From NCBI GenBank assembly GCA_964187785.1, contig OZ076409.1, positions 10,976,001 through 11,040,000 on the forward strand: 64,000 nt of DNA, written 5' to 3'. Source of the DNA: Amphiscolops sp. MND2022. Lineage: Eukaryota. A program made the position numbers and the translations under genes. Below, in pieces: positions 1-35,209 of this stretch; position 1 is the stretch's first letter, and each line of letters starts with the position of its first letter. The notes under the pieces were generated by a model. That model saw only the letters and a list, made by a program, of their open reading frames with translations. It did not search any database and had not been told where the DNA came from.

Positions 1-3000
1 GATCAACAACAATGGACGAGCTGCCGTCAACACTATTTCCAGAGACGATTCTGTCGAGTTTGAGGTGAACTTCCTTCCTAGTGCAGATTTCTTAAAGTTT
101 TTACATGCTGCATGGAGACATGCAGGCTAATCTTTTACTCCAGTCAGAAAACTTTCGAAGCTCTTGATAAGAATCGTGCAATTTTGTAAACCCTTTGGCA
201 AGATACTTTTCAAGAGCGCCAAGAATATGTAAGATCTTGCAAGATCTTGCCAAGAAGTCATATGAAAAACTGACAAAAACTAACAAAAACTGACGCCAAC
301 TGCGGTTTGATCAGCAAACCATTTATGTCACAGCTATCGGCGCTACCAACCAAGCTATCACGATCTGAAATTCAATACTTTGTGTTGTCATATAGCTAAA
401 ATATCAAAGATTGATAGTGCAGCTGGTAGTGCGAACAATAGCCAAGTACTTGTGAACAAAATTGTTGTTTGTTTTACAACTTATTCATTTTCTTGACACT
501 CTTGATACGACTCTTACCAAGATTCCTATCAAGAATATCTAGAGGTTTGTGTGAAGCAAGAATAAACAAGATCTGATGAAGGCTTTCAAGAGTAAATGGG
601 AATATGTACGAATATGCGAGATCGTGGCAAAAATTTCAAGATATTTTGCACTGGGATGGTATGCGTCGAAAACAAAACCGGTCCTAAAGTAACTGTCGAA
701 TAATAATTGAGTGCAAACTCGTCAAATAATTACAGATTACCCACAGGGATTAGTCAGTGCTAACTATGAAATAATTTTCCTTAATTGATGCGTGAAATTT
801 TCAGGTTTGCGCAAAATTTCGCTTTTTTAGTTATGTAATTGCTTGCAATGTTTCATTTCTATAGTTTACAGTGTAATAATTCACTTTTAAAAAGTTTTGA
901 TAATAGTACGATCACAAAGTTAACACTACATCCGCCAGAGAACTTTCGACGAGTTGCTTTTCGAAGAGTTGTTTCCGACGAGTTGTTTTCGACGAGCTGT
1001 TTTCGACGAGCTGTTTTCCACGAGTTTTCCTAGATTCATCCTTTACAAAACTCAGGGAAAATTCAGGGAGAAACACTTCGTAGGTTACAAGACGCCCGCT
1101 AAGCACCGGGATATTTTCCGCTAACAGAATAGTCAAGTAATTAAAATAGTCAAGTAATTCTAGTGTTACTGGTCAAGTAAGGTGAAACTGGGAGGAGATT
1201 TGGCTGAATTTGGAAAAAAAACGCAAAACAGATAATGATTTTCCTCCCCATTTATGTGGGCGGAAAATAACAATGCATCATCCACAGTCCAAGCAGTTTC
1301 AACGTTTCAACCAGGGTTTCATTGTCAGAATTCAAAAAAGTCCAAAGGAGACTCCATTTGAACCCATCGAGAGGTATCGATGGACCCATTGCAGTGTTTT
1401 CCGATGGCTATCTATTGGATTTCAATTATCGCCAAGCGCGTTATGACCCCCTGGGAAGCATTTTGGGTCTACTTTTTCTGACCTGAATCTGCTTATCTAG
1501 CGTGAATGAGCTTTTTCGGGCCTAAACGTTACTCATCTTAATGTTTTGTCTCCAATATTGTCCTTTTTTTGTTTACCTCTCTGCAAAATAGTCTGCAAAG
1601 TAGCTTCAAAATCGTGGAATACCCAAGAATAAAGTTCATCGTCAGGGTATGTAGATTGCCATGCTAGGAAGTTACAGAGTATATTCGAACTGATCAGCAA
1701 CGGCTAATTCATGTGTTCAGGTCCTGTCGCAGGCTGCCGCCTGTGACGGAACTAGAATTTCAACAACAGCTGTTGGCCAAGATGTGGCTCCTGGGACCCT
1801 ACCTATTTATTAAAAGTAAACTGAAACTTTTCTTTAAACTTTTTCATTGTTTATGTATCTTGTTGCCTTGTTATTTTAAAAACTACCCGAAAGGGCCGTA
1901 CTGGGACATATTCCCTATTACCGAACCAAAAATGTGCTTGTTATTTATTTACAGACAACCTTAGTTTTGAATGTTAATTGTATATTAGTCCGTTAACATA
2001 GATTGTGTTGTGCTGTTGTTTTGTAAATGCAATGAAGTATTAATCGGAGATAATAGCAATCAACTTAGAGAAAGTACGGAAACGTGTTCAAATGGTCCTC
2101 TGTACTTTCTTGCTAGCGTCACTTGCGCTCACTCTATTAGCCAATCAGATGCCTTCATTTTGTACGCTTTATTCTCTTTTGCCGATTATGGCCTTTGTAC
2201 AATCTGGACGAGTGTGCTACTAATGCCGTTCAGGCAGACGGTCTAATCCGGCTATTTAGTCTACAATGAACATAGCACTTGTATTTAATGCTAATTCCAT
2301 GTAGTAATATTTTTTTAGTAGTAGGCTTTGTTGATCATGAAGTACCAATTTGAAGTGCTATTTAATGCTTTGTTGTGTTATTAACAAATAATTGCCCGAT
2401 TTTGCTCTAGTACAACCCTGTTGCATGAAATTTGATGTTATTGCCTTAACAGGCCTTTTGCCATTGTACCCATGAAAGGTATTTAGACTAAACATATTTG
2501 TTGTGCTGCCATGTGCTAAAGTATGTGCACTTACATCAACAAATACCTGTTCAATGAAAATATTTTGCCAAATATGTAAACGATGCTAACGGTTGAATGA
2601 TTGTTCCTTTGATGTATAATATTTGGAATGGATAGCGTTCATCCCGTGACCATCAGGAATGCAGTCATATGATATTGTCTTAGTCAAAGAATGTAAAGAA
2701 TGAGAGTGTCACTCTTTCGGGGGTTTAAATACCCGTGCCTTTGAGAGAGGAGACACTTCTTAATTTGCTCTCTTCTGAAAAGACTATCATATTAGTACAA
2801 ACGGTTTCACTGTTATTTTCGAGATATAATCTAATTCAATTTTATACTCGAAGTTTTCCTTATGCCTACTACGAGAAAACAAAAGAAGGCTAGAAAGTCC
2901 AGAGGACTAGAGATCCTTTCTGATATTGAAAATCTAGATATAATGTTAGGAGGCGATCGTTACAATGGAACTGAAAGAGAAAGGAGTTTAGACAGTAACT

Positions 3001-6000
3001 CCGTTAGAAGGAGAGAAAGTATCATGAGTAATAACTTAGACAACGAGGACGAAAGCCTGTTTTCAAATTGTAGAAATGATGAACCTAGGACAAGTGCCGA
3101 TCTTGGTCAAAACTCAGCTGAAGCAAACTCACTAGCTTAGATAAACAGGTTGTCAAGCGAATTAAACTCTAGGATATCCCGTGAGATGGATGAAATGATG
3201 AATAATGTTGGTACACAGATCCAGAGGGCCATCAATGAGGCTATTAACAGTCAAGTATTGCCTCAAATACAGAATGTCATAATGGCCGGATCAGGTCGAG
3301 AGACCAGAAGGGGATGGGAAGTCCCAGTTGAGAGATCGGAAGCAAATGCCGAGGAACAGCGGATTCAAAACGCCAAGGCTGACTGTAGAAATGAACAACA
3401 TGATGGATACCGTTCAGGTGGACCATCTACCCGTCATGTTCATGACATGGTGACAGGAGACAACGAATCTCCACTTCAAGTTCCCGAGTTTCTCACGGGA
3501 CGAGTCTCATCCAGAAACCATCTCGACAGGTCCTATGAGGATATTAACCTTGACACGACGATCCCAGCGCAAGAGAGAAATGCTCCGGCTGATCTAACTG
3601 ACCCTATTACTCGACTGGCAGATGTCTTGACAACGATGCAGAATAGGCCGACAGCCCAACAGCTCACTATACGCCCAGTCAATTCAAACACAATGACTTT
3701 TGATGGCAAGAGTGAAAAATTCGAGCTGTTTGAGGACCTGTTCCACACGATGATCAAGATGCAACCGGAAATGACGGAACAGATGAAAATAAATCACTTC
3801 CACTCACTGCTGAGGAAGAATGCTCTCCAAACCTTCCGGAACATCAGCTCGAGCAATAGACAGACTTTAGAGGACGTATTGGTAATATTCAGACGAAAAT
3901 ACGTCAAACCCGAATCACAGGCGACTGCCAAACATAAATGGAACCGTCTAGTCTGTGATCCCAACACGATGAAACTGCCAGATTTCCTTGAAGAATTAAA
4001 TCAAGGGGCAGAAAAAGCATTCGGGGATCACGCGCAGAAAATGATTGACAGTTTGCTCTACGCAAAACTGCCACCAAAACTGAAGCGGTCTGTAAACATG
4101 GCCAGACTCGAAAACGGCTCTTATGACGAAATAGTTGCTCATTTAGAGAGAGAGTTAGAACTAAATGCCCTTGAGGAATCAGACGACCTACCAATGGCCA
4201 CAATGACCTCCTCGACAACAAAATCCAAGACTCCTCTAACTACTGGGCAAATATCTGATATCACTTGCAACTATTGCAAGGAGAAGGGCCATATGGTCAA
4301 AGACTGTGAAAAATTGAAGAAGAAAAAGGAAAAAGATGCCCAACAAGGCAAACAGACTCAGAAAAAGACGTATCCGGAGTGTGGCACATGTGGTAAAAAG
4401 AACCACCCGGAGGAAAGATGTTGGCAAGGTGCTGGTGCTCATCTTAAACCCAAACGCACCAGACCAGAAGACGCTAATGACGGTAAACCCAATTCAAAGG
4501 CGCAGAAACCACAAAACAGGTCAACATCTTCCAACTCACAGGCCTCATCTTCCAATGATGAGTCAAAAAACTAACTTCGCCACGACTCCAATACAACGAA
4601 CTGATATCCGTCCGACAATACATCAGGTCGGATCCTCCAACGAAAAATTTTCATCAATATACACAACAATTGATGGGCTATCCCTCTGTTGTCTGGCAGC
4701 AACAGATGGACAAAGCAAAAACCATCACACATAACAACACACATTTGTTCCAAAAACCAATTCCTGTTTGGGACCCTGATTATACTACTACCTTCACTAC
4801 CCGATTCAGGCCCATTCCCCTGGTTGACAATTACAACCCTACCTACATAGATCCAGACTACGGCAGAGACCCCTATTGGGACACAGAAATCTACAACCAG
4901 GAACAACTACAATTCCAATATGTCTTAGACGATATCGAACACTATAATAGAACGGTCCACGAGAACCCTCCAATCACCCACAATAAAAAGACCAGAGCAC
5001 TAGTTGAAAACTGGCAAATGAATGATGGCACCAACCATCCAGTGTTCCCAAACCCATTGGGGACCGAGACCCATGAAGACGTTGCTCAACCCATACCACA
5101 ATCACTATTAGACGAGAAGCAATTCCAGAATGTCTTAATCACCAGGGACGGTGAACCAAACTGTGTACCATTGTCAACCAACATCAACCTCAAATGCAAA
5201 AAACGCATGTTGTACTTCCCCATGGACTTTGGGGAGTTGACCATAGATGGACTTATCGACACTGGAGCGCTGTCCAGTGCAATTCCTGAGATGGACCTCC
5301 GGAAAATTCGACTCCTATCTCCACAATCTGTTATCCGGGAAGGTCCGCCTCCAAATTTCCAAATCATGGTTGCTAATGGGCAATTGGAAACTCCTAAGAG
5401 TACCATAGAGCTCAAATTTGAAGTTGGTGACATTGAGTTTCATGAGATTTTTATAGTCATGGAACACCTGACAGGTCCGATTATCGGCCTAATGTTCCTT
5501 CAACGAAACCAAACAGTTCTGGACATGAGACAAGGAATACTGAATTTCCCGTTCTTCTCAATGCAGCTCAAAACAGCTGACCATAAATACTCAAATGTAT
5601 TAGAACCAATTCTCAATCCCATTGAGATAACAATTCCGCCAAATGATAGAGTCCTAATTAGGACCAATTCCCTACTGTACCCTGAGAATGCTGTCACTGG
5701 AATTTTGCAACCGAGCGACCTTCTACATGAATAAGGCGACATCACATTTTGCCCAGCTTTGGTCACTCTGAATGATGGCAACATATTGATACCAGTGAAC
5801 AACTTCACAGACCACCCCTATAAACTCAAAAAGGGACTTCATATTGCCAATTTCTCTGTTATGACGCCAGAACAAATGAAGTATCTCAAACCGGTAGACC
5901 CGGCATCAACCTGGCATCTTTTACAAAATGACCAAGAGCAGGCAGCCCACTATGTCAGCAGTCTCATCAAAACTAATAGAAATCCACAAAACTCCGAAAA

Positions 6001-9000
6001 ATACTGGTTCCCGACTCCAGAAAATCCTGGAAACCCTGAGGAACATACGCCCATACAAAAACGAATCCTCCAAGAATTACAGGCCTTACAGGTCCTGGAG
6101 ACACTTGACCCTACTAAAGATGACGAATCACGTGCAAAATTCCTAGAAAACTTTGACTGGAAGGATTCCACCCTTACTCCTGAAGAGAAGGAGAAAATTG
6201 AGGAATTGTTAGTGGAATTCCATGACAACTTTGCACGACACCGATTCGATATAGGCATGAACGAGGAATTCAAGGTGAAACTGACGCCTAAGGACGATTC
6301 CCCAGCCTATAGTCAAAGCCTCCCAGCTCCTATCAATTTGAAGGAGGACATCCTAGTCGAATTAGCCATGTTACACAAAGATGGCATAATAACTACACTG
6401 CCATTTTCGAAATACGCAAGTCCAATATTCGCACAAAAGAAACCGAATGGGAAACTCCGACTCTTGGTTGACTTGAGAAAAATCAACAACCTCATCTCGG
6501 ATGATTACATCAACAATAATCACCCCGTCAGTACACTAGTTGATGCTGCCCAACACTTGGCAGGCAAAAAACTGTTCTGTAAATTAGACTGCTCGCAGGC
6601 ATACCACTGCCTACCAATGTCTGACCAACGTTCAATCGAAATGTTGGCTTTCAATTTTGCCAGTCGCACATTCGCTTACAGACGATTGGCACAAGGCCTT
6701 AGTCGGTCACTATCCGCATTCTCGAGTTTTATGAGAGAATACCTTGACAAAGTAATTAAAGCGGATCAGTGTGCCCAGTATGTGGACGATATCGGCATCG
6801 CAGCCAATGATGTTGACCACCTCATGACGAACCTGAGAGCTACATTCAAATGCATTCAGGAAGCAGGCCTTAAGTTAACAATGCACAAATGTCATTTCGG
6901 TGCAAAACAAAATTGATTTCCTCGGACGGACTATTACCCCACAAGGCGTCAAACCCCAGAAACAGAACGTGCAAAACTTTCTGGAAAAGACCAAATTCCC
7001 GAAGTCGAAAAAGGCTTTACAACGATATTTGGGATTCCTAAACTACTACAGGAATTATGTCCCAAGACTCTCCGAACGCCTTGCTCCATTCTACAAGATG
7101 CTCAAACGAAAAGGTCCTAGTATCGAAAGAATTAGTCCAACAATTCGAAGAAATCAATAGAGCACTAGACAAATGTTGCGACCTGGCCCTACAACAACCC
7201 ATCCCGAACAAACAAATAGCACTAATGACGGACGCAAGTTTCGGTGCAGCTGGATACGCAGTATTAATAGAAGACGATCCGAACCAGAAATTTACTTCTC
7301 TTCGAAAATCCTATGCACCGGTGGCATATGGTTCAAAAACCTTCACCCCAGCTCAAATCAAGATGTCATTATATGCCAAGGAGATTTTGGCAATTTACTT
7401 TGCATTCAAAGAATTTGGGCATATATTCTGGGGTGCGCCCAAACCGGTCATAATCCTTACTGACAATAAGGCTGTAACAAGATTTTTCCAGACGCAAATT
7501 ATACCCCCAACACTCTGGAATGCGTGTGATTATGTGATACAGTTTAATTTTGTCATAGCGCATATCCCGGGGGCACAAAATACAGCCGCAGATTATCTGT
7601 CCCGATTGGAGGCAGACCCGAAGGACAAATTGGTCATGAAAATTCGGGAAGATGTGCAAACCTTACCAATAGAAATCAATGTCCAATCCTCAGGAGTATC
7701 CCAAGAGGAACAAATATTCTACACAAACGATGACGATGAGACAGAGGAACAGTACTGGGCAAGAAAAGAAGCAATCAGGACAAATCCAGTGATCGAATTG
7801 CCCACTGTCACAATACAAACTCTGTCTACAAATCTGGTAAAACAACAACCAGATATCCAAGTCCGTCTAAGGAAAACGAACCAGATCATTATCGAGCAGT
7901 CCAAAGATGCAGTATTGCAGCAGCTGAAGGCAAAGCTCCTTCATGAAGATTACTCAGAGAACATACTGCACCAGGACGTCCGATACAGACATTATGCAAA
8001 CAATATGGAACGACTTGCCCTAAAAGACGAAATCCTGACAAGGCAATATTTTGATGAGACAGGGAATGTGAAATACCATCAGATTTTACTCCCGCAACAC
8101 TTATTTATTCCGGGAATTGCTTCAATCCCTTCACGGGACAGCGCATAAACACCCCGGAATTTCAAAAATGCTGCAGGAAATCAGACAGAGATATTACTAC
8201 CCTAGCATGGCTAAACACGTCAAAAAGTGGGTAGAAGGGTGTGAACAATGTGCCACAGACAAGAGAGTCCCTAATGCAACGATCACACCTGAACTGCTCA
8301 ATTTGCCCGGATGGGACCTTGGACCTGAAGACGCCATGCAGATTGACTCACTGCCGAATCTTCCCCCAAGTGGAGGATACGAAAACGTCCTAACGGCAAT
8401 CGATGTATTTTCTAGATATTTGTTTGCTTACCCTCTTACGGACGCATCAGCGATCAATGTAGCAAAAGCGCTCATTGATATCATGACAAAACATGCGTAC
8501 TTGCCAACAACGCTTATCACTGATAAAGGTACCGCATTTACTTCCACAATTATCGCGGAGGTTACGCAAATTTTGGGAATTACACTCAAATGTGCGACGA
8601 CGAAACACCCGCAAACAATTGGGAAATTGGAGCGGACCCATGCCTCATTAAAGACAAATCTCAAAGTGGCATGTGGGGAATACCGCCGACAATGGCATAA
8701 ATACTTGCCATTAGCAGTACTGAATCATAATACAAGTTACCATGCCAGCATCAGCTGTGAACCAACGAGAGTATTCCATGGCCGAATTCCCTACAATATC
8801 CTAGATCATAAGCTTGGAAATAATCCAAACGAAAAGATCAGCCCTACAACCGAATTTGCTGAAGAAATCCAGAACAGGACGAAAACCCTAATAGACAAAA
8901 CGAAGCAAAATATTATGCAGTCATATATCAAATACAAGGAATATTATGACCGCAAAGCGAAAGCTGCTCCATTGAAGGAGAATGAATTCTGTTTTGTCTT

Positions 9001-12000
9001 ACAGCCGAAAGCGGACCATCAAGGATCGAAAATCCCATTCCGCGATTATCGTTGGGTTGGTCCATTCATAGTGCAAAAAGTCTTACCAAATGAGAATTAC
9101 ATTGTACGACGGCTTAATACAAACAAAACTCAAACATTGCATCGAATTCGCCTTAAAAAATTTGTCCCCAATCAACCGCTTGAGGACAATTTCCGAGAGC
9201 AACGCTTGCAGCCAGACGAAGAAATTGTTATTCCGCAGGACTTATACATCATAACGTGGGAAACCGACTTTGGCGAGCAGCTAACTACGCGAGACAACGA
9301 AGCTATTCCGACTAGCTTACCGAATGGCGAACAGCCGAGTACGGCACAAATTAACAATGACGCAAACGAGAGCGACGCGGATTATATAATCACGCGAGAA
9401 ACGAATAAAGACAATACGGCACACAGCCGGAATGACCGCTTAAGTGACAACGTCACAACGAGAAATGAAAATAATGATGCAAATAGAAATAAAGAATCTG
9501 ATTGGCCGAATCCGGCCGCTAGCCCAAACACTCAAGAAAAATCTTTACCGAGTACAGCAAATGCACCGGAAAATCATGAAATTTTGTCAGAAAGAAATTC
9601 GCTGAATGAAACGATGCACAATATTCTCCAAATAGGGGGGATGATATTATCGTGCCCGAAATATCTGAAAACGATGCTAGAAATGAAAGCCTGAGCCCTA
9701 GAGGAGGAAAATATAACCTCAGGCCTAACCCCAACCCGAACTACTCAGAAGACTATAGATACTAGAGAAAATTAAATTCGATTCAGGAAACTAGCCCTGA
9801 ATTGTTTTGCCTTTTTTCTCTTTTTATCTTTTATCTTTTAGTCCCAAGGCGAATCTTTTGAATAAATAATTGGGACAGCCAACAAAACCCCTTCAGAAGA
9901 ATAAATACGGGGCAAAAAAAAACAGAAATGAAAATTCAACAAAAGAAATAAACAAAGTTTACAGTTTGAGAGTACATATATACATATGTACATTTAGTTT
10001 TTAGAACTGCTAGCTGAAGATTCGTCGGCAACAGACGAAGCCCTAGAACGCGAAATGGCCCTCTCTATTCGTCTTCGCTTGCTATCACTGGGAAGTTTTA
10101 CTGCAGAGGCATCAGGGATAGATGAGGTATCTGCTATAGTGGGGCTACGAAATTGAAACTCTGACCCAGAAAGGATAGAACGGTAAGAAGTGACAAGGGT
10201 CTTGTAAATAGCAGTCCGGCCGAAACCGTCTACAAAAGGCCAAGGGTCATAATCGGCGGCGAAAGCGGATTGCCCGAAAGAAGAAGACAGCTGCTGGAAC
10301 TTCTCAAGTTGGGGCTCAGTGCAGCAGGCTAGCAGGGAATCAGGATCTGAAGTCAAATAACGTTGGCAGGGTAAGATCACGTCTACCAAACGGGACTGAA
10401 GCCCTGTTGTATCGATTCTCCCAAAGGAAACTGGGGGATATTCAGGATTGATAGTAGTTATGCAAAGACAGCTAAACTTAAACAAATAGCAAAGATGATC
10501 ATGGGACTGAAGGAATTCCAAATTCATGAAGAAATCGATGAGATCAGGAGGATCCTTGGCTGAACTAAATTCAGCGGAGTGATTGTTCCGGAGGTGGTCC
10601 AATAGGGCAACATACTCGTCTCGGCAAGCTGACTCGTTGAATTCCGAGACCCAGAAACGCAGCTGGAATGTGGAGTACAGGCAATCAAAATGGCGCAAAG
10701 CAACATCCACTGGTCGTTTGAATAGGATGTATGGGTCGAACGCTGCCAACCCTTTGATAAGTTCGAAACTAAGTTCAGTATGTTGGAGAACCTCCGACAA
10801 CAGGAACTTGATGTAATTCCTGGCGCTTGCTGCGAAATCCAATTTGGCCTGGTCGGCAGTCTTACTAATCGCTGCTTTACTGGACTTCATGTTGAAGTGG
10901 AGTCCAGCTGCTTTCAAGTTGCTTGCTGTAGTAACTTTGCCAGCGATCTTGAGATGCACCAGAAGGTTCTCGTCTCCCATGAATGTACCCTGGTTGAGCT
11001 GGAAATTCATCAATAAGAACCAGGCGTTCTCTAGTGGCACTGTATCCGGCTGGAAGATGCGGAAGCAAAGGCGGTTGATGTATTTGCACACTCCGCCACA
11101 GAGGAAGAAGGAGGCATCACGTCTCTGACTCAAATTGGTGACGAAGCTGGTGACATCTGAAATTCACAAATCAATGGTCCTTAAAAGGACAACAGACCAA
11201 AGGGATCTTAGTAGATTGAGAATACTCACAATCGCTGACCAAACGTTGAAAAAGCTCCAATTTGGCAGCAAAGAAGTTGTCCATGATGAGGGACCATTCG
11301 AAGCTCTGGACCTAGGAAAGAAGCAGTGTGAACACCTTGAGACTTACCCATCAACGATAATGCAAGGAAAGCAATTACTACGATTCCTTATGTAAAGAAA
11401 ATGCCACTTGAAGTTCATAACCTTATTGTGCACTCCTTGATTCTCTTGGCGAGATGAATGGGCTGTAAGATAGCGGAGGATTGTTTTCCACTTCTTCGAC
11501 AAGGTTCGGCAGAGTTCAGGAATTTTCTCCACTTCTAGTCTGCAGGTCGTGATTGCCTAAACAAAGTAATCCTCAGGATTGGAATTTCAACTGAAGTTGC
11601 TTACCACCCCCTACCAGTGTAATGTAAAAAACTAGACTCACTCGGACAAGTTCAGGTGACTCTGAAACCCAGTCTTCAGATAGGCATCCTCCGAGTGAGA
11701 CTAAGAGACTTTGGAGAACGGAAAACATGTCTATGTGCCCAAACACACTGTAGTTCCCCTTGTGCATCAAGGTACGCAAGTTGAGCAGTTCGAAGCGGAA
11801 GCAACTTTGAACCCCTCGCGGATAGGCTGGGTGATGGTCCACCGTCCTGATCAGGTCGACAGCGCAACCTGAGATCGCAACTATGTCAGGAGCAGTCGAT
11901 ACGACGGATAACAGTCGAGATAGGGAGCCCAGTTCCTCGGTGAGTCCAGCGCCGGTGAGGCCACTTCTGCAGATGAATAGGCGGCAGAGTTTCGCTCCTT

Positions 12001-15000
12001 TCCAGAACCGCAGGGACATAAAGCGATTAGCCCCTCTCTTCTCAAACTCAACTCCGAAATGCTGGGAGGCGCAGACCTGTTCAGCTATGTCCTCCATCAG
12101 GCAATTGAAGACGTGTTGGAAGATGGCCTGAAACGGAACAAAATTGGATGAATAACATGACGTCACTTTCCTGACCCTTCCCTACCACCTAGTTCAACTT
12201 TTTGGAAAACAACTGAGAGATCTTACCATGATGTGGTCCTCATTCCAATTGAAGTCCTGGAAAGCTGACTGAAACTCAGTGTAACTTCCAACTCTCGCCC
12301 ACAGTTTTCGAAGCAGTGCCAAATCTCCAGAACTTTGGATGAAGTCTCCCAAAAGACATATCTGTGTTCGTAACCGGGACTGTGGAGTGATGGGAGCGGA
12401 AGTGTGGCCTTGCAGATAATCCTCGTAGAATGGATTTCTTTCTCCAACGTCAACGAGCTCCGTGTGTATGAACCTGGGTAACTCATCAGCGAGTTCCTTC
12501 TTACTAAGAATTTTGCCATTCTTCCCCCTGACGCGATGCTGAACTTTCCCAGTCACAAGATCCACTGTTTTGAGGTGTTCATACCTCCACCTCTGGTCTC
12601 GGCGTAAATGTTTTTCGGTCCTGTGATGGCGCAGGATTTCAACGGTGCCCTTGGTTTTTATACTAAAATTCTTTTTACACATGTGGCACCATACCATGTG
12701 TGGATTGTGGAGGGGATCAGAGGGCCCAGAGATAAAAGATCTCGTCCACCCGATTTTGGAAAGAAACTCCTCCCTCATGGGTACGCCTCGTCTGGAAACC
12801 TTTTTCACTTTGGCTGATTTAGCAGTTGTGGTACTTTTTCGGGACCTCTGGGTAGGCGTCCTATTCTGGATCTCAGAGAGGGTAATGTCGAGGCTACCCT
12901 TTTCACCTGTCTCAGCTCCCTCCTCAGAAGAATCTTTTGGCTGCGCTGGCTGGGGCGTTTGAGGAGAACCCCTGGGATCTGAGAGTCTGGTTGATGAGAG
13001 CCATTTCAGTAGAACTGTCACTCTCGTTGGGATCAAGGAAATCACTGACGTTCTGGAGCAGACTCATGTCAGTTTGTGACTCATATCCTGACCCGAATTC
13101 AGTCAAAGTTCCTTCAGAACCGGATCTAGCAGGTAAATTGGGACCAGGAGTGGACGAGCGGGCCCGGATCTGAAACTTTTCTGTCCTCGAGGGGGCTGTT
13201 GCGGGTGTTCCTCTGACAGCTCCAATTACCATCCTTTCCATGGTCGAACAAGTCATGTTGATGGCCTCATCGGTTAAAACCCGGAGCAAGTGGTAAACTT
13301 GTGGCTCAGTAAATGCGACGACTCTTTGTCCGACCGGGAAGGTGTAAGGGTCCTCGGTCTCGAAGTACTGCTTCAAGGTGGCTCGACTTCGCCCTGACAA
13401 ATCTCGCAAGGTGTCGTTTTGACCTGATTGGCCAGATCTAGATGTGCCAGGTTGGCCCGGATCGTGAACTTCTGAGCCTGATTCACCTCCAGTTTCTGAT
13501 TGCTGTGTAGAGTCAAAAGGGTTCATAGCATATAATGGGGGGCACTCAGCTTGACTGATGTTTTCTGATGTTTGATTGGCATCACTGAACTCACCAATAT
13601 CTTCAACTTGGTCTTTCCTCCCAGGAAGTGGAGGAGGTTCTATGATAGAAGAGGAGGCATCCCCTTCAGACTGTAAGAATGGGACTTCAGACATCCCTTG
13701 TGTCTGATCTTGGAGGACTTGCAACTCGAGAAACCCTGTGCTCATCATCGGCGCCACTGAAAGCGAGGATTCAAGTTGGGTGAGACTATCTACTGAAGTC
13801 CCTGGCTGATTTGGTGGATTAGGTGTGCCAGATCGTACAAATTCAGCACCCTGGACTGCAATTTGGACTAATTGGCCTTGGGCCGTAATAGGACCCTCTT
13901 CAACGTTACTAGCAGAATCGGCTTCAGTAAGTCCTTGTATGGTCTCCATCCTCTGGGACTCCTGATTTGCATAGGCGGTGACATCGGCATTGCTCTCATT
14001 GTGGAAGGAAGAGTCTACAGTCATATGCTCGGTTTGTCCACGGGCAGCCCTGATTGGAGGGAAAGGAGGCGGTGAAGGATTAACTCCAGGAACATATCCA
14101 GACGTGAAAATGGGGACTGGGCGTTGAATAGCCCCGGCAGAATTGTCAGTTGTGTTGGTGGTTTGAACTTGAGGTTCATCAGGATTCTGGTTATCTAAAC
14201 AGAAAGAGATGAAATTTGGCGGTAAGCTTCCTTGAAAGAAATCCATTACGCCGCATTAGAAAACTTCCGGAAGTGTTTTGAAAATTTGAATGAAACGGTT
14301 TATCACGTGTTCATTAGTAGATACAGGAAGCGTTTTGTGAACAAATTCGACCTTGATCAAGTTGAACTAGTTCAAACTAGGAGAAAATCAAACCAACCTG
14401 TATTAGAAGACATTCTGTTGAAACGGCCCACTTGGATACAGTTCCGATTCGGACGTTGTTGAAAAGGGGGAATTAGAAGTGCTCGGGGATGAAGCAAGGG
14501 GAAAGAATCTGCGATGAAGCAGGACGTGGTCCGATGCAGGCACCGAGACGAAATTGACGATGAAGATGAAGATGAAGATTAAATTGCAAATGAAAGGATA
14601 AACGGAACAATAATTGGAATTAAATCAGGAATTGAATGAGTAAAAGAATTACTAAAAGTTGGAGTTCGTGGCTGAAGATTATTACCAGACTAATATTATG
14701 GGATTATCTACATATTTATTCTGTACATGGAGTCTGCCAGCGAAGTGTACAAAAACTTTGTTATTTACAGCTTACTTAGTTAGTGGCCTATTCCGGCCGT
14801 TTGACCAGTTGCACTTTATCGTTTCGTTCAGTTATCTTAGTTATTCTTAGTTAGAAAATCCGCCATTTTGAATTATTTTGATTTGTTATTTTCGCCATTT
14901 TTTTATTTAATTTTTCAATTATCAGAGCTTAACTCTGATTGGCTGAAGCCATGTTGGAAGTATTTAGCGACGCGTGCTGTTAATTGTTCTGAAGCAAGCC

Positions 15001-18000
15001 GTTAATTACCTACTAGAGGTGAAGATATTTGATATCAACAACTTAAGTGCTGCTTACACCTACTTTGATGATGGCTTTGATGAAGGACAAACATCAAACC
15101 AATCGGAGCCGCCAACCCCGTTTAGGAATTCCATTCAGAAAAGTTTACGATGAATCGGGGCAATCAACCTAAGATTCTCCCGCTAAATTGGAAACTTCGG
15201 GAAAAGTCCTAACTCGGAATTTGGGGAGGTGATAAGCTCATTCTGATTTCAAACCCGCTCACGACAAGTTGACTAGAAAACCTTCAAAATTGCAAAAAAA
15301 CTGATAATGGAGAAATTCAACAAAGCGAGAAAGCTCTTTGGTTCTCTTGACTTTAGCTCGGACTCATCAAATAACTCTGTAATCTATATCAGTAGCGACG
15401 AAGAAACATCCGAAGGATGGGACTCAGATTGGTCAACGGACACAGAGGAGCTGGTGAGGAGAGTTGAAACTCAAGTCCAAGCCCGGCCAATACCCATAGC
15501 AGGAAGAAAACTAACTATGGCAAGTGATGAGCCTGGCCCCAGTACTGTGCCGCCCAACATGCAGACCACGCCAAAGCTAGACAAGAAATACTTTGATGAG
15601 AAACTTTGCTATGCTCCAACTAGAGGCAACACAAAAAGGAGGATAGAACTGTGCAAGACGATTCTGCCAGTTCTAGAGTCTCCACTATCTCCCCCTGCCC
15701 ATGAGAGGGGGCCGTCAATGCACACGCCGCTATTACAGCCTGAAAACAGTGGATTTCACGCCTCTTTCCATATTCAGAATGCGCTTCCTTACACGGACAT
15801 CAGTACCCAGAGGTGTACGAGTTGCATGGTCTGTGGAAAGTCAGTAGACGAAATAAAGGCAATAAAAGTGACTCGCTATATGGAAGCTTCAACGCCTAGA
15901 AGCGAACCGGCGTACATAACAGCTCTCAGAAAGGAGGCTTACATCAACGGCCTCAATGCTGGCAGTCTTCTTTTCATCGCACCCGCTGTGTCGCAGGCTG
16001 CCGCCAGTGACGGAACTAGAATTTCAACAACAGCTGTTGGCCAAGATGTGGCTCCTGGGACCCTACCCATTTATTAAAAGTAAACTGAAACTTTTCTTTA
16101 AACTTTTTCATTGTTTATGTATCTTGTTGCCTTGTTATTTTAAAAACTACCCGAAAGGGCCGTACTGGGACATATTCCCTATTACCGAACCAAAAATGTG
16201 CTTGTTATTTATTTACAGACAACCTTAGTTTTGAATGTTAATTGTATATTAGTCCGTTAACATAGATTGTGTTGTGCTGTTGTTTTGTAAATGCAATAAA
16301 GTATTAATCGGAGATAATAGCAATCAACTTAGAGAAAGTACGGAAACGTGTTCAAATGGTCCTCTGTACTTTCTTGCTAGCGTCACTTGCGCTCACTCTA
16401 TTAGCCAATCAGATGCCTTCATTTTGTACGCTTTATTCTCTTTTACCGATTATGGCCTTTGTACAATCTGGACGAGTGTGCTACTAATGCCGTTCAGGCA
16501 GACGGTCTGATCCGGCTATTTAGTCTACAATGAACATAGCACTTGTATTTAATGGTAATTCCATGTAGTAATATTTATTTAGTAGTAGGCTTTGTTGATC
16601 ATGAAGTACCAATTTGAAGTGCTATTTAATGCTTTGTTGTGTTATTAACAAATAATTGCCCGATTTTGCTCTAGTACAACCCTGTTGCATGAAATTTGAT
16701 GTTTTTGCCTTAACAGGCCTTTTGCCATTGTACCCATGAAAGGTATTTAGACTAAACATATTTGTTGTGCTGCCATGTGCTAAAGTATGTGCACTTACAT
16801 CAACAAATACCTGTTCAATGAAAATATTTTGCCAAATATGTAAACGATGCTAACGGTTGAATGATTGTTCCTTTGATGTATAATATTTGGAATGGATAGC
16901 GTTCATCCCGTGCCCATCAGGAATGCAGTCATATGATATTGTCTTAGTCAAAGAATGTAAAGAATGAGAGTGTCACTCTTTCGGGGGTATATATACCCGT
17001 GCCTTTGAGAGAGGAGACACTTCTTAATTTGCTCTCTTCTGAAAAGACTATCATATTAGTACAAACGGTTTCACTGTTATTTTCGAGATATAATCTAATT
17101 CAATTTTATACTCGAAGTTTTCCTTATGCCTACTACGAGAAAACAAAAGAAGGCTAGAAAGTCCAGAGGACTAGAGATCCTTTCTGATATTGAAAATCTA
17201 GATATAATGTTAGGAGGCGATCGTTACAATGGAACTGAAAGAGAAAGGAGTTTAGACAGTAACTCCGTTAGAAGGAGAGAAAGTATCATGAGTAATAACT
17301 TAGACAACGAGGACGAAAGCCTGTTTTCAAATTGTAGAAATGATGAACCTAGGACAAGTGCCGATCTTGGTCAAAACTCAGCTGAAGCAAACTCACTAGC
17401 TGAGATAAACAGGTTGTCAAGCGAATTAAACTCTAGGATATCCCGTGAGATGGATGAAATGATGAATAATGTTGGTACACAGATCCAGAGGGCCATCAAT
17501 GAGGCTATTAACAGTCAAGTATTGCCTCAAATACAGAATGTCATAATGGCCGGATCAGGTCGAGAGACCAGAAGGGGATGGGAAGTCCCAGTTGAGAGAT
17601 CGGAAGCAAATGCCGAGGAACAGCGGATCCAAAACGCTAAAGCCGACTGTAGAAATGAACAACATGATGGATACCGTTCAGGTGGACCATCTACCCGTCA
17701 TGTTCATGACAGGTCCTATTCATTATTCCAGCCAATATTGATCTTATTCTATTTTCAAACTAAACCAGTTGGAACGATTTTTCTTCTTCAAATTCTTGAA
17801 ATCCATCGATGGGCTATCGATGGCTATCGCTGGGAATTTTGACCTTTAATGCCCATCGATGCTCTCCTATATTTTAATTTCATTATTGATGGTTCGAACC
17901 ATCAATAATGAAATCGAAACATCGAGAGCATCGATGGGCATTTGAGGTCGATGGGATTTCGATTGAAAAATGATATCAAAACCCTCAATTCGTTTGAGAA

Positions 18001-21000
18001 TTTCGAGATTTTGTATGAAAAACCCCATATTGATACTTGCGTTTTTGATCTGAAACAATCGTTATCATAAAACTTTTGTGAATGACATGTCGAATTTGAG
18101 ACATGAAATGTTTGTTTCAGTTCATCAGTCTACACCGGACAGAGTACCTGAGTTTCAACGTGACCTTCGTGTTCACAGAGGGCCACAGCTACTTCAAGGT
18201 AGCCCGGATTTACTTCACTTCCCTCCCCATGGAGTACTTCTATTCCCAATTCGGAAGAGATTCAGACGATGCCCGGGACGTCTCTCTTTACTCTCCAAAA
18301 ATCAGGACCGAACTCATTCAACTATACGTGCCCGGTAATTTACCTTTCCGGACCATATGTCTCACCCCCCCCCCCTCAAGTACACCTTGCTTCGAATTAA
18401 CTGCCACACCCCCAACACAAAAGCACATTTTGTTTTTTGATAAAAATATTTCACTAATAGGAGATTATATTAATGTAAATACTTGGAGAAGTGTCTTTGC
18501 AGCTATTTTGACACTTCCAGCAAAAAATAACCCTGTTTATTCAATACTATTGTCCAAAATAGCAAAAATTCACGCTTGGAACAAGCTAAAATCGTATAAA
18601 AAAGTCCCCATTTCAACGCAAATTTTCTCCGCGATAAAATCGAATGACCAACTTTTAACTGGCAGTCAATTTTTAAAAAGGATTATGTCGACATTAATTA
18701 TTTATTTATTGAACCAAAATTTTTACGCAAATGATGTCGACATAATGGAATTTGAACCTTGTGTCTTACTTCCCCACGCAACCGCTTGGGGGGATTGGGA
18801 ATAAGACACACGGTCAATCTTTCCTTCCTCAATTCTTGATGGTGTGCAAAGTTTCATTTGCAAGGAGGGTTTCGACATTGTTAATTGTTTTCGGTAATCT
18901 CGGTAATCCGCTAACTTTCAAATCGCTATTTCGCTGAAAAAGCATTTTCTAACCATTAAATGTTTGACTTCAAGTATATTTTAAAATTGAATGTTATCTC
19001 AAATTGGTTTTTGCAAGAATAAAAGAGTGCGTTTTTCAAGAGTGAAAATAGAAATTTTGCGGAAATCATTTTCAAACTCTGTTTATACTGAAAAAAAGTT
19101 TTAAAAATTGAAATTGGACATTCTATTGGTTGCTGCTAATTTGATTAGCTGATGAAATCGCTGAAAATTCCTGCGCGCCCGCTAATTCGCTAAATCGCTA
19201 TTTAGCGGCGTCAAAACTCTGTTCGGAAAACTTAATTTTAACTGAATAAGATTTCATAAACACGTGGATTTATTGTTCATCGATTACAAACTTCAAATAG
19301 AAACATTGGAATCTAAGTTTTTTGGGTCGGATTTTCACACTTTTTTGTTAGGATTTTTACAAAAGCTTGTTTCTTTACGAATTGATTTCAGATAACGAAA
19401 TCTGGTGGAAATATCCAAGCTCCTAAACTTTGAAACTGTTGTAGCACCATACTTTTCAACAATTAATAATTAGGAATTGATCCAAAGGTACAATCATCTA
19501 GAATTCAAAATGCCCAATACAATCATTTGAAAATACGCCGCGGGGGAAATAAGACACAAGGTTCAAAAACTATTATGTCGACATCGTTTGCCTTGAAATT
19601 TTGGTCCGATAAAATAATTGATGTCGACATAATCCTATCTTTTACATTGACTGCCAGTTAAAAATTCCTCATTAGCTTTTATCGCTTTTATCGAGAAAAT
19701 TTGCGTTGAAATAAGTGCCTTTTCATACTACTTTAGCTTGTTCCAAGTGTGAATTTTTGCTATTTTCCACTATAATATCAAAAATTAGGGTTGTTTTTTT
19801 GCTAGAAGTGTCAAAACAACTGTAAAGACAATCTGCTAAGTATTTACGTTCTCCTAATAGTGAAATACTTTTATTGAAGAACAAAATGTGTTTTCTTGTT
19901 GGGGGATTCGAAGCAAAGTTTACCTGGGGGTAAATAAGTAAATAAGGCATATGGTCCAATATATCTGCCAAAATTTCATCGAGAAGGAAGTTTTATGAAC
20001 TGTCCACGTGTTTGCCCAGTGTAAAAAATCTTGAAATTCTTGGCAAGGATCTTGCAAATTCCTGAAACCCGTGGTAAGAATCTTGGCAAGATTCTTGTAC
20101 GATCTTGCAAAATCTTGCCAAGAACTTCAAGAAAAATGCCTAATTTTTCGACTCAAAAAACGAAAACGCACAAAAAGCGTTTTGGTACAAGAAATCTTTC
20201 AGGCAAAACCAAGAATTTTGTCAAGAAGTCCAAGAAAATCCAAGAATCTTGCCAAGAAATCTGGGAAAACCCAAGAATAAGCGGGAAGGGCAAGATATTA
20301 TTGGATGATCATGAATGAAAATGCCTGAAAAAGCCTTATTTTGATAAAAGTAATGCTCGTAAGCACCACTAAAATAGAGAATTCGTGAACTGAAATTAGT
20401 ATACTGTATTAGTATGCTACAGTTCCACGTCTAAAAAAGACGATATGTCAATTGGTACCAAACTTTGTTTTCTATTATTACAACGTTATCAATCTGATTG
20501 AACAATTGGCTCCAAAATACTTTTGGAAAGTTTCCCTGATTACATCTTTGATATTTTTCCATATTTCCTCAGGAAAGTTTATTATAAACAAAATTCGTTC
20601 CATACGTTCGCTCCTGGTTGGTGTTTGATGAAATGCATAAATTATCACAGACTTGCTACATACAGTTTTCACCTCCCGGATTTCTTGACAAGAATCTTGC
20701 CAAGATTCTTGTCAAGAATTTCAAGATTTTTTAACGGTCCAAGATAATTCAAGATTTTATCAAGGGTTTCAAGAGGTAACGGGAATTTGTGGGAAAATCC
20801 AAGATCTTGGCAAGAGTTTCAAGATATTTTACACTGGGTAATCATTCGTGTAACTTTTTAAATCAAGCAAGTTGCCATCGCTTTTAGAGTCTTCATGCAG
20901 CAATTTGATTGACATCCACAATCTAACAGTGACCAACCCCTGTCAACTGACTGCTTCTTCCCACAAAGACAAGCTCACATACCCCACAACAGCCAGTAAC

Positions 21001-27000: not shown

Positions 27001-28986
27001 ATTAAAAATCATCTGCTTCTTGGCGTCTTGATACAAATTGGTGACAAGAATACTATGTATTTTTCATCAAACAAGTTTTCGATTAAAAACAACAAGTTCC
27101 ACTGAAGTAAATTTGTCATTGCCGGCATAGTGTGAAGAAAACTTCGGATTTCTGGCCAAGCTGATCATAACGTGCACCATAGATGGTACCATTCAAATAA
27201 AGCAAAATGTATTTCTCTTCTGATATCAGTCCAATAAAGTAGGAGTCAATACGGCCTAAGTTTTGTCTGTTTTTCCACTCCAAGATAACTTTTCTACCAT
27301 ATACATGAAAGAACAAAATATAGTTAAGCTGGAATCATACTGTGTTTATCAGCCTGGTTTTGTAGGGAATGAACACCCGGGAAACGTTATAAGGCTTGCT
27401 TCTATTTTTTTGCTTTTTCCTCTAAAAACAAAATGTATTGTGGTGGGTATCGTGCACAGACAAAAGCGCCCCAGACAAAAGCGCCCCAGTCAAAAGCTCG
27501 CCAATAAAAGCGCTAGCTAAATTTTGAGCTGAGTTCATCTCCTCGAATTAAATATAATTGAAGGTGTTCAAACAAGATAACATTTCATTGGTAATACGTT
27601 GTTTTACATTTTCACACCCAACCAATTCCAATTGAAAACGACCTAAATTGTTAATTATTTAAACGACCTAAATTAATTTCTTTAATAGCAATTTAGTCAA
27701 ATTTTCGCATTTCTGCCAATTAATTTCTTTAGAATCAATTAGTCAAAGCAGAGTTTTAAAATGAAAATCTCAATTATTTAAATGGAGTGAGAAACCTAAA
27801 GTTGTAGCGTTTGATTGGGGCGCTTTTGTCTGATAACCGGATAAAGTTTGTTTGTGCTTCAGAAATGCATGGAAACGTGGCTTCCATTGTGGGGTACCTA
27901 GTCAAGCCGGAGTACCAGCTGTTCGCCGTGGGGCAGAGCCAGAGGACGTATCTGGCATCGAGTGACGTTGGTGATAACTGGATCTCCATACCCACAAGGG
28001 TGGGTAATCACTCCGTGTTCTGCTCTTATGAAGATGATCTTGTACATTTTCAGGGACCATGTGCCTTATTCCCCCGAGCCGTCGCAGGCTGAGGGGGATC
28101 GTGGACGAAAGAAACAAAGTACAAACACCATCATGTCGACATCGCTTGAAATTTTGGACAAATTAAATAAATGATGTCGACATAATCCAATCTTTTACAC
28201 TGATTGACAAATAGGAAATTTCCTATACAATTTTAAATTTTGAGATGTAAATTTTTGCTTTTTTGTCAGAAAAATATCAAAAAATTTGGATAATTTTTAC
28301 TTCAAGTGTCGAATTAACTATAGAGATTATCTTCTAAATATTTATAGCCGTGTCAATTTCTTTCATCTGCCTAGAAGTTTTTCAGGCATAGAAGTTGCTT
28401 TTGTGTAGGGAGAAAGGGAGAAATAAGAAGCAAGGTGTACCTGGGGGAATAGGACATATGGTGCTTTTTCAGTTTTTAAGATCGTAATTAGATTATCAGA
28501 ACAAAAATGTCGAACAGAATGTAAGGTATAGTATACACCAACTCATTTTGCAAATCTTAAAAATTTGCCAAATCCAAATAGATTGAGAATCTGCTGACAA
28601 TTTGTGAATTTTAGCAGGTTATATCTTACAAGTTAGACCATTTTTTATGTCTTTTTATTGTTTTTATAATTTATTCTATTCATGCGCTTAATTGAGCACG
28701 ATCTTTTCGGCTTTTCGGAACTTTTAGGCCCGAAAATCCCGAAAATTATTTATTGGATGTGGCATCAAAATTTTGTTTTCACCAGGACTGGTGGTCCGCC
28801 CGTGCACAGAGTTCATTGAAGTTCAAAGCGGCCAAAAGGATGCCGAATGTGCTGCCGCTGAAACATTTGGACGACGAGTCCTATGATTGGTCGAAGTTGC
28901 AAGACTCTTGGTACAACGCTGACACTTTCAGAGGTTACTATCATGAACAAACTTCACTTACCGACAGTGAATTAGGTCGCTTGTAA
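1..28986 (+). CDS. Multi-exon host gene (5' part outside window) encoding a discoidin/F5-8 type C-like domain protein. Exons: <1-64, 18121-18334, 22967-23160, 26158-26377, 26735-26846, 26920-26978, 27863-27999, 28786-28986 (3' end uncertain; alternative donor after 28933)
   Basis: All introns are GT-AG and the phases chain consistently (0,1,0,1,2,1,0). Translation contains SKFRLRYSLDDEGQFWRPY and WRFELSGC (F5/8C-like motifs) and SSDVGDNW (Asp-box-like SxDxGxxW). Confidence 0.75.
945..1030. repeat. Short degenerate tandem repeat, unit ~14 bp (ttttcgacgagctg)
   Basis: About six imperfect copies visible directly. Confidence 0.7.
1087..1270 (+). mobile_element. Non-autonomous HINE/Helentron-like element, family A
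   Basis: Starts acaagacgcccgctaagcaccggg; subterminal inverted repeats tattttccgc / gcggaaaata; internal atagtcaagtaa repeats; small 3' hairpin. Related copies at ~33390, ~38310, ~45205, ~49268, ~54187, ~57625. Confidence 0.6.
1725..3447 (+). repeat. 5' LTR (1,723 bp)
   Basis: About 99% identical to 15989-17711 (about 16 substitutions by manual comparison); TG...CA ends. Confidence 0.97.
3448..3459 (+). promoter_or_regulatory. Primer-binding site, probably tRNA-Leu
   Basis: TGGTGACAGGAG immediately after the LTR end; one mismatch to the typical tRNA-Leu PBS TGGTGTCAGGAG. tRNA identity is an inference. Confidence 0.7.
4565..4571 (+). promoter_or_regulatory. -1 ribosomal frameshift slippery site A AAA AAC (gag-pol)
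   Basis: X XXY YYZ heptamer directly before the gag TAA; the -1 frame is open from here into the protease ORF (KLTSPRLQYNELISVRQ...LMGYP). Confidence 0.75.
4572..9765 (+). pseudogene. pol: pol polyprotein (protease, RT, RNase H, integrase) with a stop at 5732-5734 and frameshifts near 6905, 7105, 8110 and 9610
   Basis: LIDTGA protease; LDCSQAY and YVDD RT; TDAS, TDNKA, ADYLSR RNase H; H..H..CEQC zinc-binding domain, D/TDKG/LER catalytic triad and WVGPF (GPY/F) in integrase; C-terminus KYNLRPNPNPNYSEDYRY* ends at 9765. Confidence 0.95.
9994..14246 (-). CDS. Antisense spliced accessory gene of the retrotransposon: ~1,300-aa BED-type zinc finger / hAT-transposase-like protein. Exons 14246-12227 (one frameshift near 12980), 12127-11642, 11556-11422, 11311-11230, 11156-9994
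   Basis: Four GT-AG introns of 99, 85, 110 and 73 bp join five ORF segments in frame (phases 0,0,0,1). WCHMC-x15-HHRTEKH finger. The exon 3 donor (GTTATG) is the least certain junction. Confidence 0.8.
14247..15306. promoter_or_regulatory. Putative bidirectional internal promoter region
   Basis: Non-coding gap between divergent ATGs at 14246 (-) and 15307 (+); CCAAT-type boxes ctgattggc (~14935) and ccaatc (~15099). Inference only. Confidence 0.4.
15307..16077 (+). CDS. Uncharacterised 256-aa accessory ORF with an acidic N-terminus and CxxCxxC motif; last 89 bp lie inside the 3' LTR
   Basis: Intact ATG-TAA ORF; SSDEETSEGWDSDWSTDTEE and RCTSCMVCG; no signal peptide or transmembrane segment apparent. 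Confidence 0.7.
   Translation: MEKFNKARKLFGSLDFSSDSSNNSVIYISSDEETSEGWDSDWSTDTEELVRRVETQVQARPIPIAGRKLTMASDEPGPSTVPPNMQTTPKLDKKYFDEKLCYAPTRGNTKRRIELCKTILPVLESPLSPPAHERGPSMHTPLLQPENSGFHASFHIQNALPYTDISTQRCTSCMVCGKSVDEIKAIKVTRYMEASTPRSEPAYITALRKEAYINGLNAGSLLFIAPAVSQAAASDGTRISTTAVGQDVAPGTLPIY
15989..17711 (+). repeat. 3' LTR (1,723 bp)
   Basis: Direct repeat of 1725-3447; TATATATA at 16988-16995; AATAAA at 16295-16300; intact copy of the gag N-terminus from 17126. Confidence 0.97.
18349..18814. mobile_element. MITE family with GGACC...GGTCC termini and internal tgtcgaca motifs
   Basis: Homologous copies at ~19540-19958, ~28053-28460, ~45598-46000 and 50547-50992; the last has clear TIRs ggaccatgacatctat / atagatgacatggtcc. 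Confidence 0.6.
20015..20838. mobile_element. MITE with CCCAGTGTAAAA terminal inverted repeats and caagaatcttg-rich arms
   Basis: cccagtgtaaaaaatcttgaaa... pairs with ...ttcaagatattttacactggg; related copies at ~52690-53010 and an end at ~630-654. Confidence 0.7.
22270..22912 (+). mobile_element. Non-autonomous HINE/Helitron-like element, family B
   Basis: Begins aacaagccggga..., ends ...cgccgactaaaaa after an agtcg/cgact hairpin; copies at ~40117-40610 (+), ~25620-26137, ~44480-44824 and ~49990-50240 (-). Confidence 0.6.
23939..24369 (+). mobile_element. Internally deleted hAT DNA transposon
   Basis: 17-bp TIRs taggggtgtgcgattaa / ttaaccgcataccccta; 8-bp TSD tccttttt (23931-23938, 24370-24377); residual frame LALEYLSIPGTAVPSEREWSDGGNII...MLIFLEENLMK* matches the hAT C-terminal dimerisation domain. 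Confidence 0.9.
27451..27839. mobile_element. MITE-like element with cagacaaaagcgcccc terminal repeats
   Basis: 16-bp units at the left end, inverted unit at the right end; relatives at ~30913, 39706-40704 and ~56727. Confidence 0.6.
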
Positions 28987-34735: not shown

Positions 34736-35209
34736 CGGTTCTAGGACAATACGCCCAAAGACATTACGCCCAAGGACATTACGCCCAAGGACATTACGCC
34801 CAAGAAAATTACGCCCAAACGGAAATTACGCACAATGAAATTAAGCTATTCGAAGCGAATAACAGCAATTTTTTTCAGGTTATTATTTGAAGAGGTTTAA
34901 AAATTTGTTGTATGGCTCGGTCGCTTCGCTCCCTTCGCCAAGTAGCAACATTGAGGCATGGCCATATGGCACGTCGCTCCGCTTCGCTTCGCTCCTGCAT
35001 TTAGGGCACTAGAAGTATGTGAGCATAGCTGATTACATTATCGTAATTTCCTTGGGCGTAATTTACGTTTGGGCGTAATGTCCGCTTTGAGCATAATGTC
35101 CTTGGGCGTAATGTCCTTGGGCGTAATGTCCTTGGGCGTAATGTCCTTGGGCGTAATGTCCTTGGGCGTAATGTCCTTGGGCGTAATGTCCTTGGGCGTA
35201 ATGACACCG
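34736..35209. mobile_element. Foldback-like MITE whose arms are 15-bp tandem arrays (ggacattacgcccaa)n / (ttgggcgtaatgtcc)n
   Basis: CGGT...ACCG termini; 6-bp TSD ttccat at 34730-34735 and 35210-35215. Confidence 0.85.

Follow-up and report, generated by a model that had tools for sequence, protein, structure and literature searches.

An abundant Ty3/gypsy-type retrotransposon of Amphiscolops sp. with a predicted spliced antisense gene of likely hAT transposase origin and a fourth gene that reaches into its long terminal repeat

The 64,000-nucleotide stretch of the Amphiscolops sp. MND2022 genome analyzed here (the window; assembly GCA_964187785.1, contig OZ076409.1, positions 10,976,001 to 11,040,000, forward strand) contains a 16-kb long terminal repeat (LTR) retrotransposon at 1725..17711. 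Its two plus-strand LTRs (1725..3447 and 15989..17711, each 1,723 bp) differ by 16 mismatches in 1,723 nt (99.1% identity), end in TGTC...GACA and are flanked by the target site duplication GGTCC (1720..1724 and 17712..17716). A sequence-only reading of the window had proposed four genes on two strands: gag, pol, an antisense gene with a BED-type finger, and a further sense open reading frame (ORF), ORF4. The LTRs, duplications and reading frames bear this layout out, and pol (stop at 9765) is indeed followed by ~6.2 kb of accessory sequence (9766-15988; 6,223 nt) before the 3′ LTR. As also proposed, coding sequence crosses both internal LTR boundaries, the frame of gag running over 3447 and that of ORF4 over 15989. 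A point beyond that reading is that the copy in the window is broken, with stops in gag (3138-3140) and pol (5732-5734) and frameshifts in pol (near 6900, 7100, 8090, and 9600) and in the first exon of the antisense gene (near 12980).

The gag gene (2862..4574, plus strand) has its ATG at 2862, inside the 5′ LTR and 586 nt upstream of the LTR end, so that the first 195 codons are LTR sequence. The predicted LTR promoter is a TATA-like box at 2724..2731 (plus strand), 138 nt upstream of this ATG; 27 of 29 copies have such a match 121-144 nt upstream of it. Because gag starts in the LTR, the primer-binding site TGGTGACAGGAG (3448..3459, plus strand; 12 nt complementary to host tRNA-Leu at its 3′ end, CCA included) lies within gag. 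Pfam recognizes DUF1759 (E 6e-6) and, weakly, a zf-CCHC knuckle in the gag product. Just before the gag stop is an A AAA AAC heptamer (4565..4571, plus strand), a predicted -1 ribosomal frameshift site that is present in 27 of 28 elements, the remaining one having a deletion there; pol, in the -1 frame relative to gag, is presumably made by such frameshifting. The pol gene (4571..9765, plus strand; ~1,730 codons) has the gypsy order of protease, reverse transcriptase (RT), RNase H, and integrase (gag-asp_proteas, RVT_1, RT_RNaseH, Integrase_H2C2, and rve), the protease match scoring 27.1 bits against a cut-off of 28.2. Reading frames are open in 15 of 28 elements for gag and in 8 of 28 for pol. 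The spacer between the converging stops of pol and the antisense gene (9766..9993) contains plus-strand AATAAA in 30/30 copies (mean 2.7 per copy vs 0.58 shuffled), a candidate plus-strand 3′-end signal or, alternatively, the U-rich 3′ untranslated region of the antisense gene.

Elsewhere in the genome, a tandem array of intron-containing tRNA-Leu(CAA) genes begins at ~35.587 Mb on C8 (L125, L126), with a repeat unit of mostly 235-296 bp and 23 genes in 10 kb according to ARAGORN; the 3′ end of these genes matches the primer site of the element. The tRNA-Leu 3′-end pattern has 980 matches genome-wide, and among the matches listed most lie in this array.

The sequence-only reading held the antisense gene to be spliced, and five predicted exons on the minus strand fit this, with phases that continue, free of stops, from the BED part through to the end; the predicted product has ~1,300 amino acids. 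Exon 1 (12227..14246) encodes a long acidic region rich in S, T, and P, a basic patch, and a CxxC..H..H finger of BED type (~12608-12688). It is followed by predicted intron 1 (12128..12226, 99 nt), exon 2 (11642..12127, 486 nt), whose motifs, read by eye, point to a likely degenerate RNase H-like core, intron 2 (11557..11641, 85 nt), exon 3 (11422..11556, 135 nt), intron 3 (11312..11421, 110 nt), exon 4 (11230..11311, 82 nt), intron 4 (11157..11229, 73 nt), and exon 5 (9994..11156), a helical domain that resembles hAT transposases over their C-terminal third. A donor for intron 2 at 11604 was ruled out by phase and conservation in favor of 11641.

Comparison of 30 diverged copies (one was skipped) showed that the splice ends are kept: GT and AG in 30/30 for intron 1, 30/30 and 28/30 for introns 2 and 4, and 24/26 and 26/26 for intron 3 where it is present. 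Intron lengths are highly variable and gaps sit in the introns, whereas exons 2-4 are constant in length (486 nt in 23/30 for exon 2, 135 nt in 29/30 for exon 3). Database proteins read without a break across the exon 3-4 junction (P0054) and the exon 4-5 junction (P0246 and P0316), and plus-strand frames over exons 1 and 5 contain 12-32 stops. An intron oriented against the genomic RNA can survive in a retroelement, since it is not spliced out before reverse transcription. Intron 3 is precisely missing from one subfamily (4/30), which suggests occasional recombination with spliced cDNA.

ORF4 (15307..16077, plus strand; 256 amino acids) encodes an acidic, S/P-rich protein, with the last 89 nt of its gene in the 3′ LTR; no known family was found for it in the family searches. 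Its acidic N-terminus carries VIYISSDEE, which resembles a SUMO-interaction motif, and VIYISS followed by acidic residues recurs in 37/37 homologues. The 30 nt upstream of its ATG (15277-15306) show codon-like conservation and some homologues begin 13 residues earlier, which may mean that the N-terminus of ORF4 is longer or that an exon lies upstream. An AATAAA after ORF4 occurs in only 5/30 copies and is not claimed as a signal. The sequence-only reading had seen no env-like ORF, and the hydropathy analysis agrees: no 19-residue stretch exceeds 1.72 in any ORF of the window, and by this measure no third ORF of errantivirus type, with a signal peptide and a membrane anchor, was detected.

The non-coding interval between the antisense gene and ORF4 (14247..15306) contains an ETS-like site (14263-14274), YY1-like sites (14861 and 14893), and a CCAAT box (14936), motifs typical of bidirectional promoters. 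A divergent internal promoter had been placed here before; the conservation of the ETS-like (26/28 copies), YY1-like (25/28), and CCAAT (27/28) motifs, against shuffled expectations per copy of 0.027, 0.006, and 0.148, fits that proposal, with the promoter still a predicted one. Blocks in this interval, one of them near 14660-14760, are up to 90% conserved among copies in which nearby synonymous sites are saturated. Blocks rich in AATAAA/TTTATT, readable on either strand, occur here as well as after pol. No conserved fifth ORF was found in the interval, and RNA structure in the conserved blocks is not claimed (only 1-4 standard deviations below column shuffles).

The same organization was found throughout the family. 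From 39 other listed matches to the BED region, 30 were fetched and three, without two full LTRs in the stretch, were set aside; the other 27 are two-LTR elements of ~16.0 kb with a median LTR identity of 99.5%, and 25 of the 27 have a 5-bp target duplication. A second sample was picked by RT DNA alone to avoid bias (20 of 36 new matches fetched), and in all 20 copies the antisense exons are present and ORF4 follows in the usual order. Loci picked by a 47%-identical last exon have the whole layout in nine of ten cases, the tenth being interrupted before ORF4. A more distant clade (clade B; RT ~81% and last exon ~26% identical at the amino acid level) likewise has its gag beginning in the LTR, with the shared primer site and, in 9/9 loci, the five exons and ORF4; one clade B locus lacks the primer site. 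Absence of the accessory region from other copies, which would have told against the proposed layout, was thus not observed. Clade B ORF4 proteins have DSDIE(V/I)I (6/6), which, like VIYISS plus acidic residues, we take to fit a SUMO-interaction motif, and the clade retains the YY1-like motif in 5/6 and the ETS-like motif in 4/6. Each of the 49 loci selected with the antisense gene adjoins pol.

The exact junction of LTR and primer site occurs 3,430 times in the genome (1 for the control), which at 16 kb each corresponds, as a rough figure, to ~5% of the assembly. One homologue in the databases, P0316, has a best match of only 31% in this genome, which makes it probable that the lineage is present in another genome as well. 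Some elements stand in tandem ~14.3-14.4 kb apart, apparently with one LTR in common (L019/L020; C1:79174073 and 79188394; C12:39856977-39886739).

A second point beyond the sequence-only reading is that no polypurine tract precedes the 3′ LTR in the window's clade (clade A): the 15 nt in front of it have a longest purine run of 2 in 28/30 copies, and the junction is nearly always CCCGCAG|TGTC (CAG in 29/30). In clade B the junction reads AGGGGAG, a purine run of 7-8 nt. Because clade A copies are young and have no such tract, their second-strand priming would appear to work via a non-canonical primer. The 15 nt before the 3′ LTR (15974-15988) resemble a splice acceptor, with pyrimidines, TAAC, and CAG.

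Both accessory genes are under purifying selection. Omega, calculated from 28 elements with variants common to at least three copies, is 0.02-0.16 for gag-pol (gag, 0.16 inside and 0.07 outside the LTR) and close to this in the accessory genes: 0.26 and 0.08 in exon 1 (open in 12/28 elements), 0.08 in exon 2, 0.06 in exon 5, and 0.05 in ORF4 (0.03 for the part inside the LTR). Private variants gave 0.36-0.90, and shifted frames mostly >1. We have very little doubt that the layout is real, fixed, selected, and abundant across the lineage.

The modules have different histories. Among 11 elements (55 pairs; 45 for ORF4), gag-pol differs at 0.27-0.39 of fourfold sites and the portion of gag inside the LTR at 0.49; the figure for the accessory genes is 0.66-0.70. 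Tree lengths for 14 elements are 0.8-1.1 for gag-pol vs 3.8-5.0 for the accessory genes and LTRs; in the same elements, well-supported groups disagree among the antisense gene, ORF4, and LTR trees, and approximately unbiased (AU) tests reject cross-module topologies, with exons 5 and 2 in agreement (p 0.18). AU-type tests reject easily, and the fourfold-site contrast is independent of them. Gag-pol is thus nearly uniform, and the accessory genes and LTRs are deeply diverged and reassorting; this divergence and discordance indicate template switching and argue against strict pairing of a BED protein with its own LTR.

The antisense gene is, with good though not full confidence, a whole, catalytically dead hAT transposase with a BED finger; this likely origin, and the reassortment, are additions to the sequence-only reading. 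Exon 5 has Atlas matches in support of this origin, and its model gives a weak, collinear structural match to Hermes (PDB 8edg) residues 372-606, the BED-type finger lying upstream. The finger motif, with upstream aromatics, is present in 30/30 copies. At the likely catalytic positions, placed by eye, the homologues have E in 33/33 at the first D and S/T/A at the second, the CxxH histidine is absent, and the third, C-terminal catalytic E is not conserved; these differences from Hermes are joined by ~470 extra N-terminal residues and the lack of terminal inverted repeats (TIRs). Hidden Markov model tests of the antisense gene, on the other hand, were negative: Pfam gave no match above cut-off in the accessory ORFs of the window, and zf-BED was found on only 1/18 antisense homologues, at E 0.2. 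Foldseek returned no match at E 0.001 for either exon 5 model, a wide structural search with the first, low-confidence model gave nothing useful, profiles found nothing among PDB sequences, and PF14291 had no match in the genome. Neither TIRs nor the 8-bp duplication of hAT elements were found at the module ends, and a search for longer homologues gave none, which is weak evidence. hAT families with long open frames are present in the host genome (L152-L171), many of Ac type and at least one of Tip type, none of them close to the antisense gene.

The element has the marks of Ty3/gypsy (Metaviridae): TG...CA LTR ends with a 4-6 bp duplication, the pol order, and a tRNA primer site. It is filed here as gypsy-type, with formal membership left open on account of the missing polypurine tract in clade A; its RT has only weak foamy-virus and HIV RT matches in the PDB. 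DUF1758 and Peptidase_A17, the Pao-type protease and RNase H families expected of BEL/Pao (Belpaoviridae), had no match in the Pfam scan, the DUF1759 match in gag being all that it offered here. In Ty1, too, gag begins inside the LTR and contains the primer site, and the HIV accessory ORF nef overlaps the 3′ LTR. HTLV-1 HBZ is a spliced antisense regulator (PMC11963269). The present element combines the features of all three and has no env, and no homology to them is shown.

Among plant gypsy elements, Retand, Grande1, and RIRE2 have conserved antisense ORFs in a 3-6.5 kb region between pol and the 3′ LTR; the antisense ORF of Grande has its own promoter and encodes a nuclear protein, and a transposase-like TRP28 domain in these elements is a proposed DNA binder (PMC11963269; PMC7264820). 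Our element shares with Retand an antisense ORF between pol and the 3′ LTR, though TRP28 (PF04195) had no match in Pfam scans; it differs from all three in that its host appears to be an animal, in an antisense gene that has four predicted introns and a BED finger and likely spans a whole hAT transposase, in its fourth sense gene and gag inside the LTR, and in the absence of tandem arrays. Other plant gypsy elements carry PMD, a domain common to gypsy elements and MULE DNA transposons (PMC9289625); the domain here is different, likely hAT, and its intron structure is kept. Among animals, planarian Burro and Caenorhabditis elegans Cer1 are gypsy elements with extra coding capacity: Burro has its extras fused in one sense polyprotein with env homology (PMC6431247), and Cer1 makes CERV from a spliced mRNA (PMC10309623); the available text of these two papers describes no antisense transposase-derived gene, and that of an acoel genome paper gives no more than an overall LTR share, with no family described (PMC9911081). 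Our literature search found no LTR element that combines an antisense gene of hAT origin, introns included, with a fourth gene in the LTR. The suggestion of an undescribed lineage stands only as far as that search of papers reaches; repeat libraries (Repbase, Dfam, and GyDB) and supplements lay outside that search, and a bare entry for the family in an existing repeat catalogue is possible.

We interpret the element as a recently active, high-copy Ty3/gypsy-type lineage whose two selected accessory genes likely encode nuclear regulators that keep it transcribed, and give this reading a probability of roughly 0.55. The LTR TATA box would drive genomic and gag-pol RNA, with tRNA-Leu as primer and pol made by -1 frameshifting, and transcription of the antisense gene (leftward) and of ORF4 (rightward) would start from the internal divergent promoter. 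The BED protein may bind a site common to many family members and ORF4 may act on SUMO-dependent silencing or recruit activators, together helping the element to switch on against host silencing, while template switching, when genomes are packaged together, would carry the best gag-pol into old lineages of accessory genes and LTRs. Precedents exist in DNA transposons (bioRxiv 10.64898/2026.08.24.746577; PMC13547354), where transposase-derived self-regulators are known. VANC of VANDAL and TnpA of Spm are element-encoded anti-silencing regulators, TnpA being transposase-derived (bioRxiv 10.64898/2026.08.24.746577). These reside in DNA transposons, the word "retrotransposon" being absent from the available text of that preprint, and, unlike them, the present antisense gene reassorts freely against the LTR. 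A more specific version, tentative and at less than even odds, is that a complete intron-containing hAT gene was domesticated as the element's own transcription factor alongside a SUMO-pathway antagonist, within one recombining population that has a single gag-pol engine, dozens of ancient regulator/LTR alleles, and no purine tract for the second strand, hence its ~5% of the genome.

Accessory proteins that act on RNA in the manner of Rev or CERV, allowing read-through of internal 3′-end signals or export of the 14-kb genomic RNA, are an unlikely alternative: the plus-strand AATAAA after pol in 30/30 copies would shorten the genomic RNA unless bypassed, and CERV in Cer1 is a precedent (PMC10309623). 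The same AATAAA also reads as part of the antisense gene's 3′ untranslated region on the opposite strand, and the family searches with the accessory proteins found no RNA-binding family. BED fingers, moreover, are DNA-binding. Such a finger on a transposase-like scaffold, together with an integrase tail in which Pfam finds no chromodomain, could also mean that the antisense protein tethers the integrase complex to chosen DNA or chromatin; with target duplications that show no obvious common motif by eye and junction matches spread along C1, we regard steering of integration as less probable still.

A role in place of env, with ORF4 or the antisense protein mediating cell-to-cell spread, is very improbable; ORF4 does occupy the env/nef position, but hydrophobic segments >1.9 were found in 0/37 ORF4, 0/18 exon 2, 0/18 BED-part, and only 2/31 exon 5 homologues. 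Least probable of all is that a nested DNA transposon, or cargo of another kind, makes up the accessory region and is copied passively. hAT elements do exist in the genome, yet the purifying selection on shared variants, the same exons at 26% identity in clade B, the lack of TIRs at the module ends, and the position next to pol in all 49 loci speak against it, and we count it refuted by the selection and by clade B, unless free-standing copies with TIRs explain the selection.

Other features of the window include a 233-amino-acid ORF just outside the element (18103-18804) with no Pfam match, and perfect or near-perfect palindromes without spacers, with arms of 67-204 nt (55862-56269, 46502-46838, and 51367-51500), which could be real or assembly artefacts. 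Dispersed 15-bp minisatellite families occur at 27442-27518, 30904-30965, 39697-39818, and 56741-56802, and at 34743-35218; one pair is inverted, like the ends of a miniature inverted-repeat transposable element.

Reviews describe the antisense accessory ORFs of LTR retrotransposons as of unknown origin and function, with no similarity to other transposons to back nested insertion (PMC7264820). In this element the likely donor can be seen: a gene for a DNA-transposon enzyme, introns included, under selection in thousands of copies. Such a case would amount to the domestication of one mobile element by another, and it would offer an animal counterpart, open to testing, of the plant VANC/TnpA anti-silencing systems; the missing purine tract and the population with a uniform core and diverse regulators each pose a testable question of their own.

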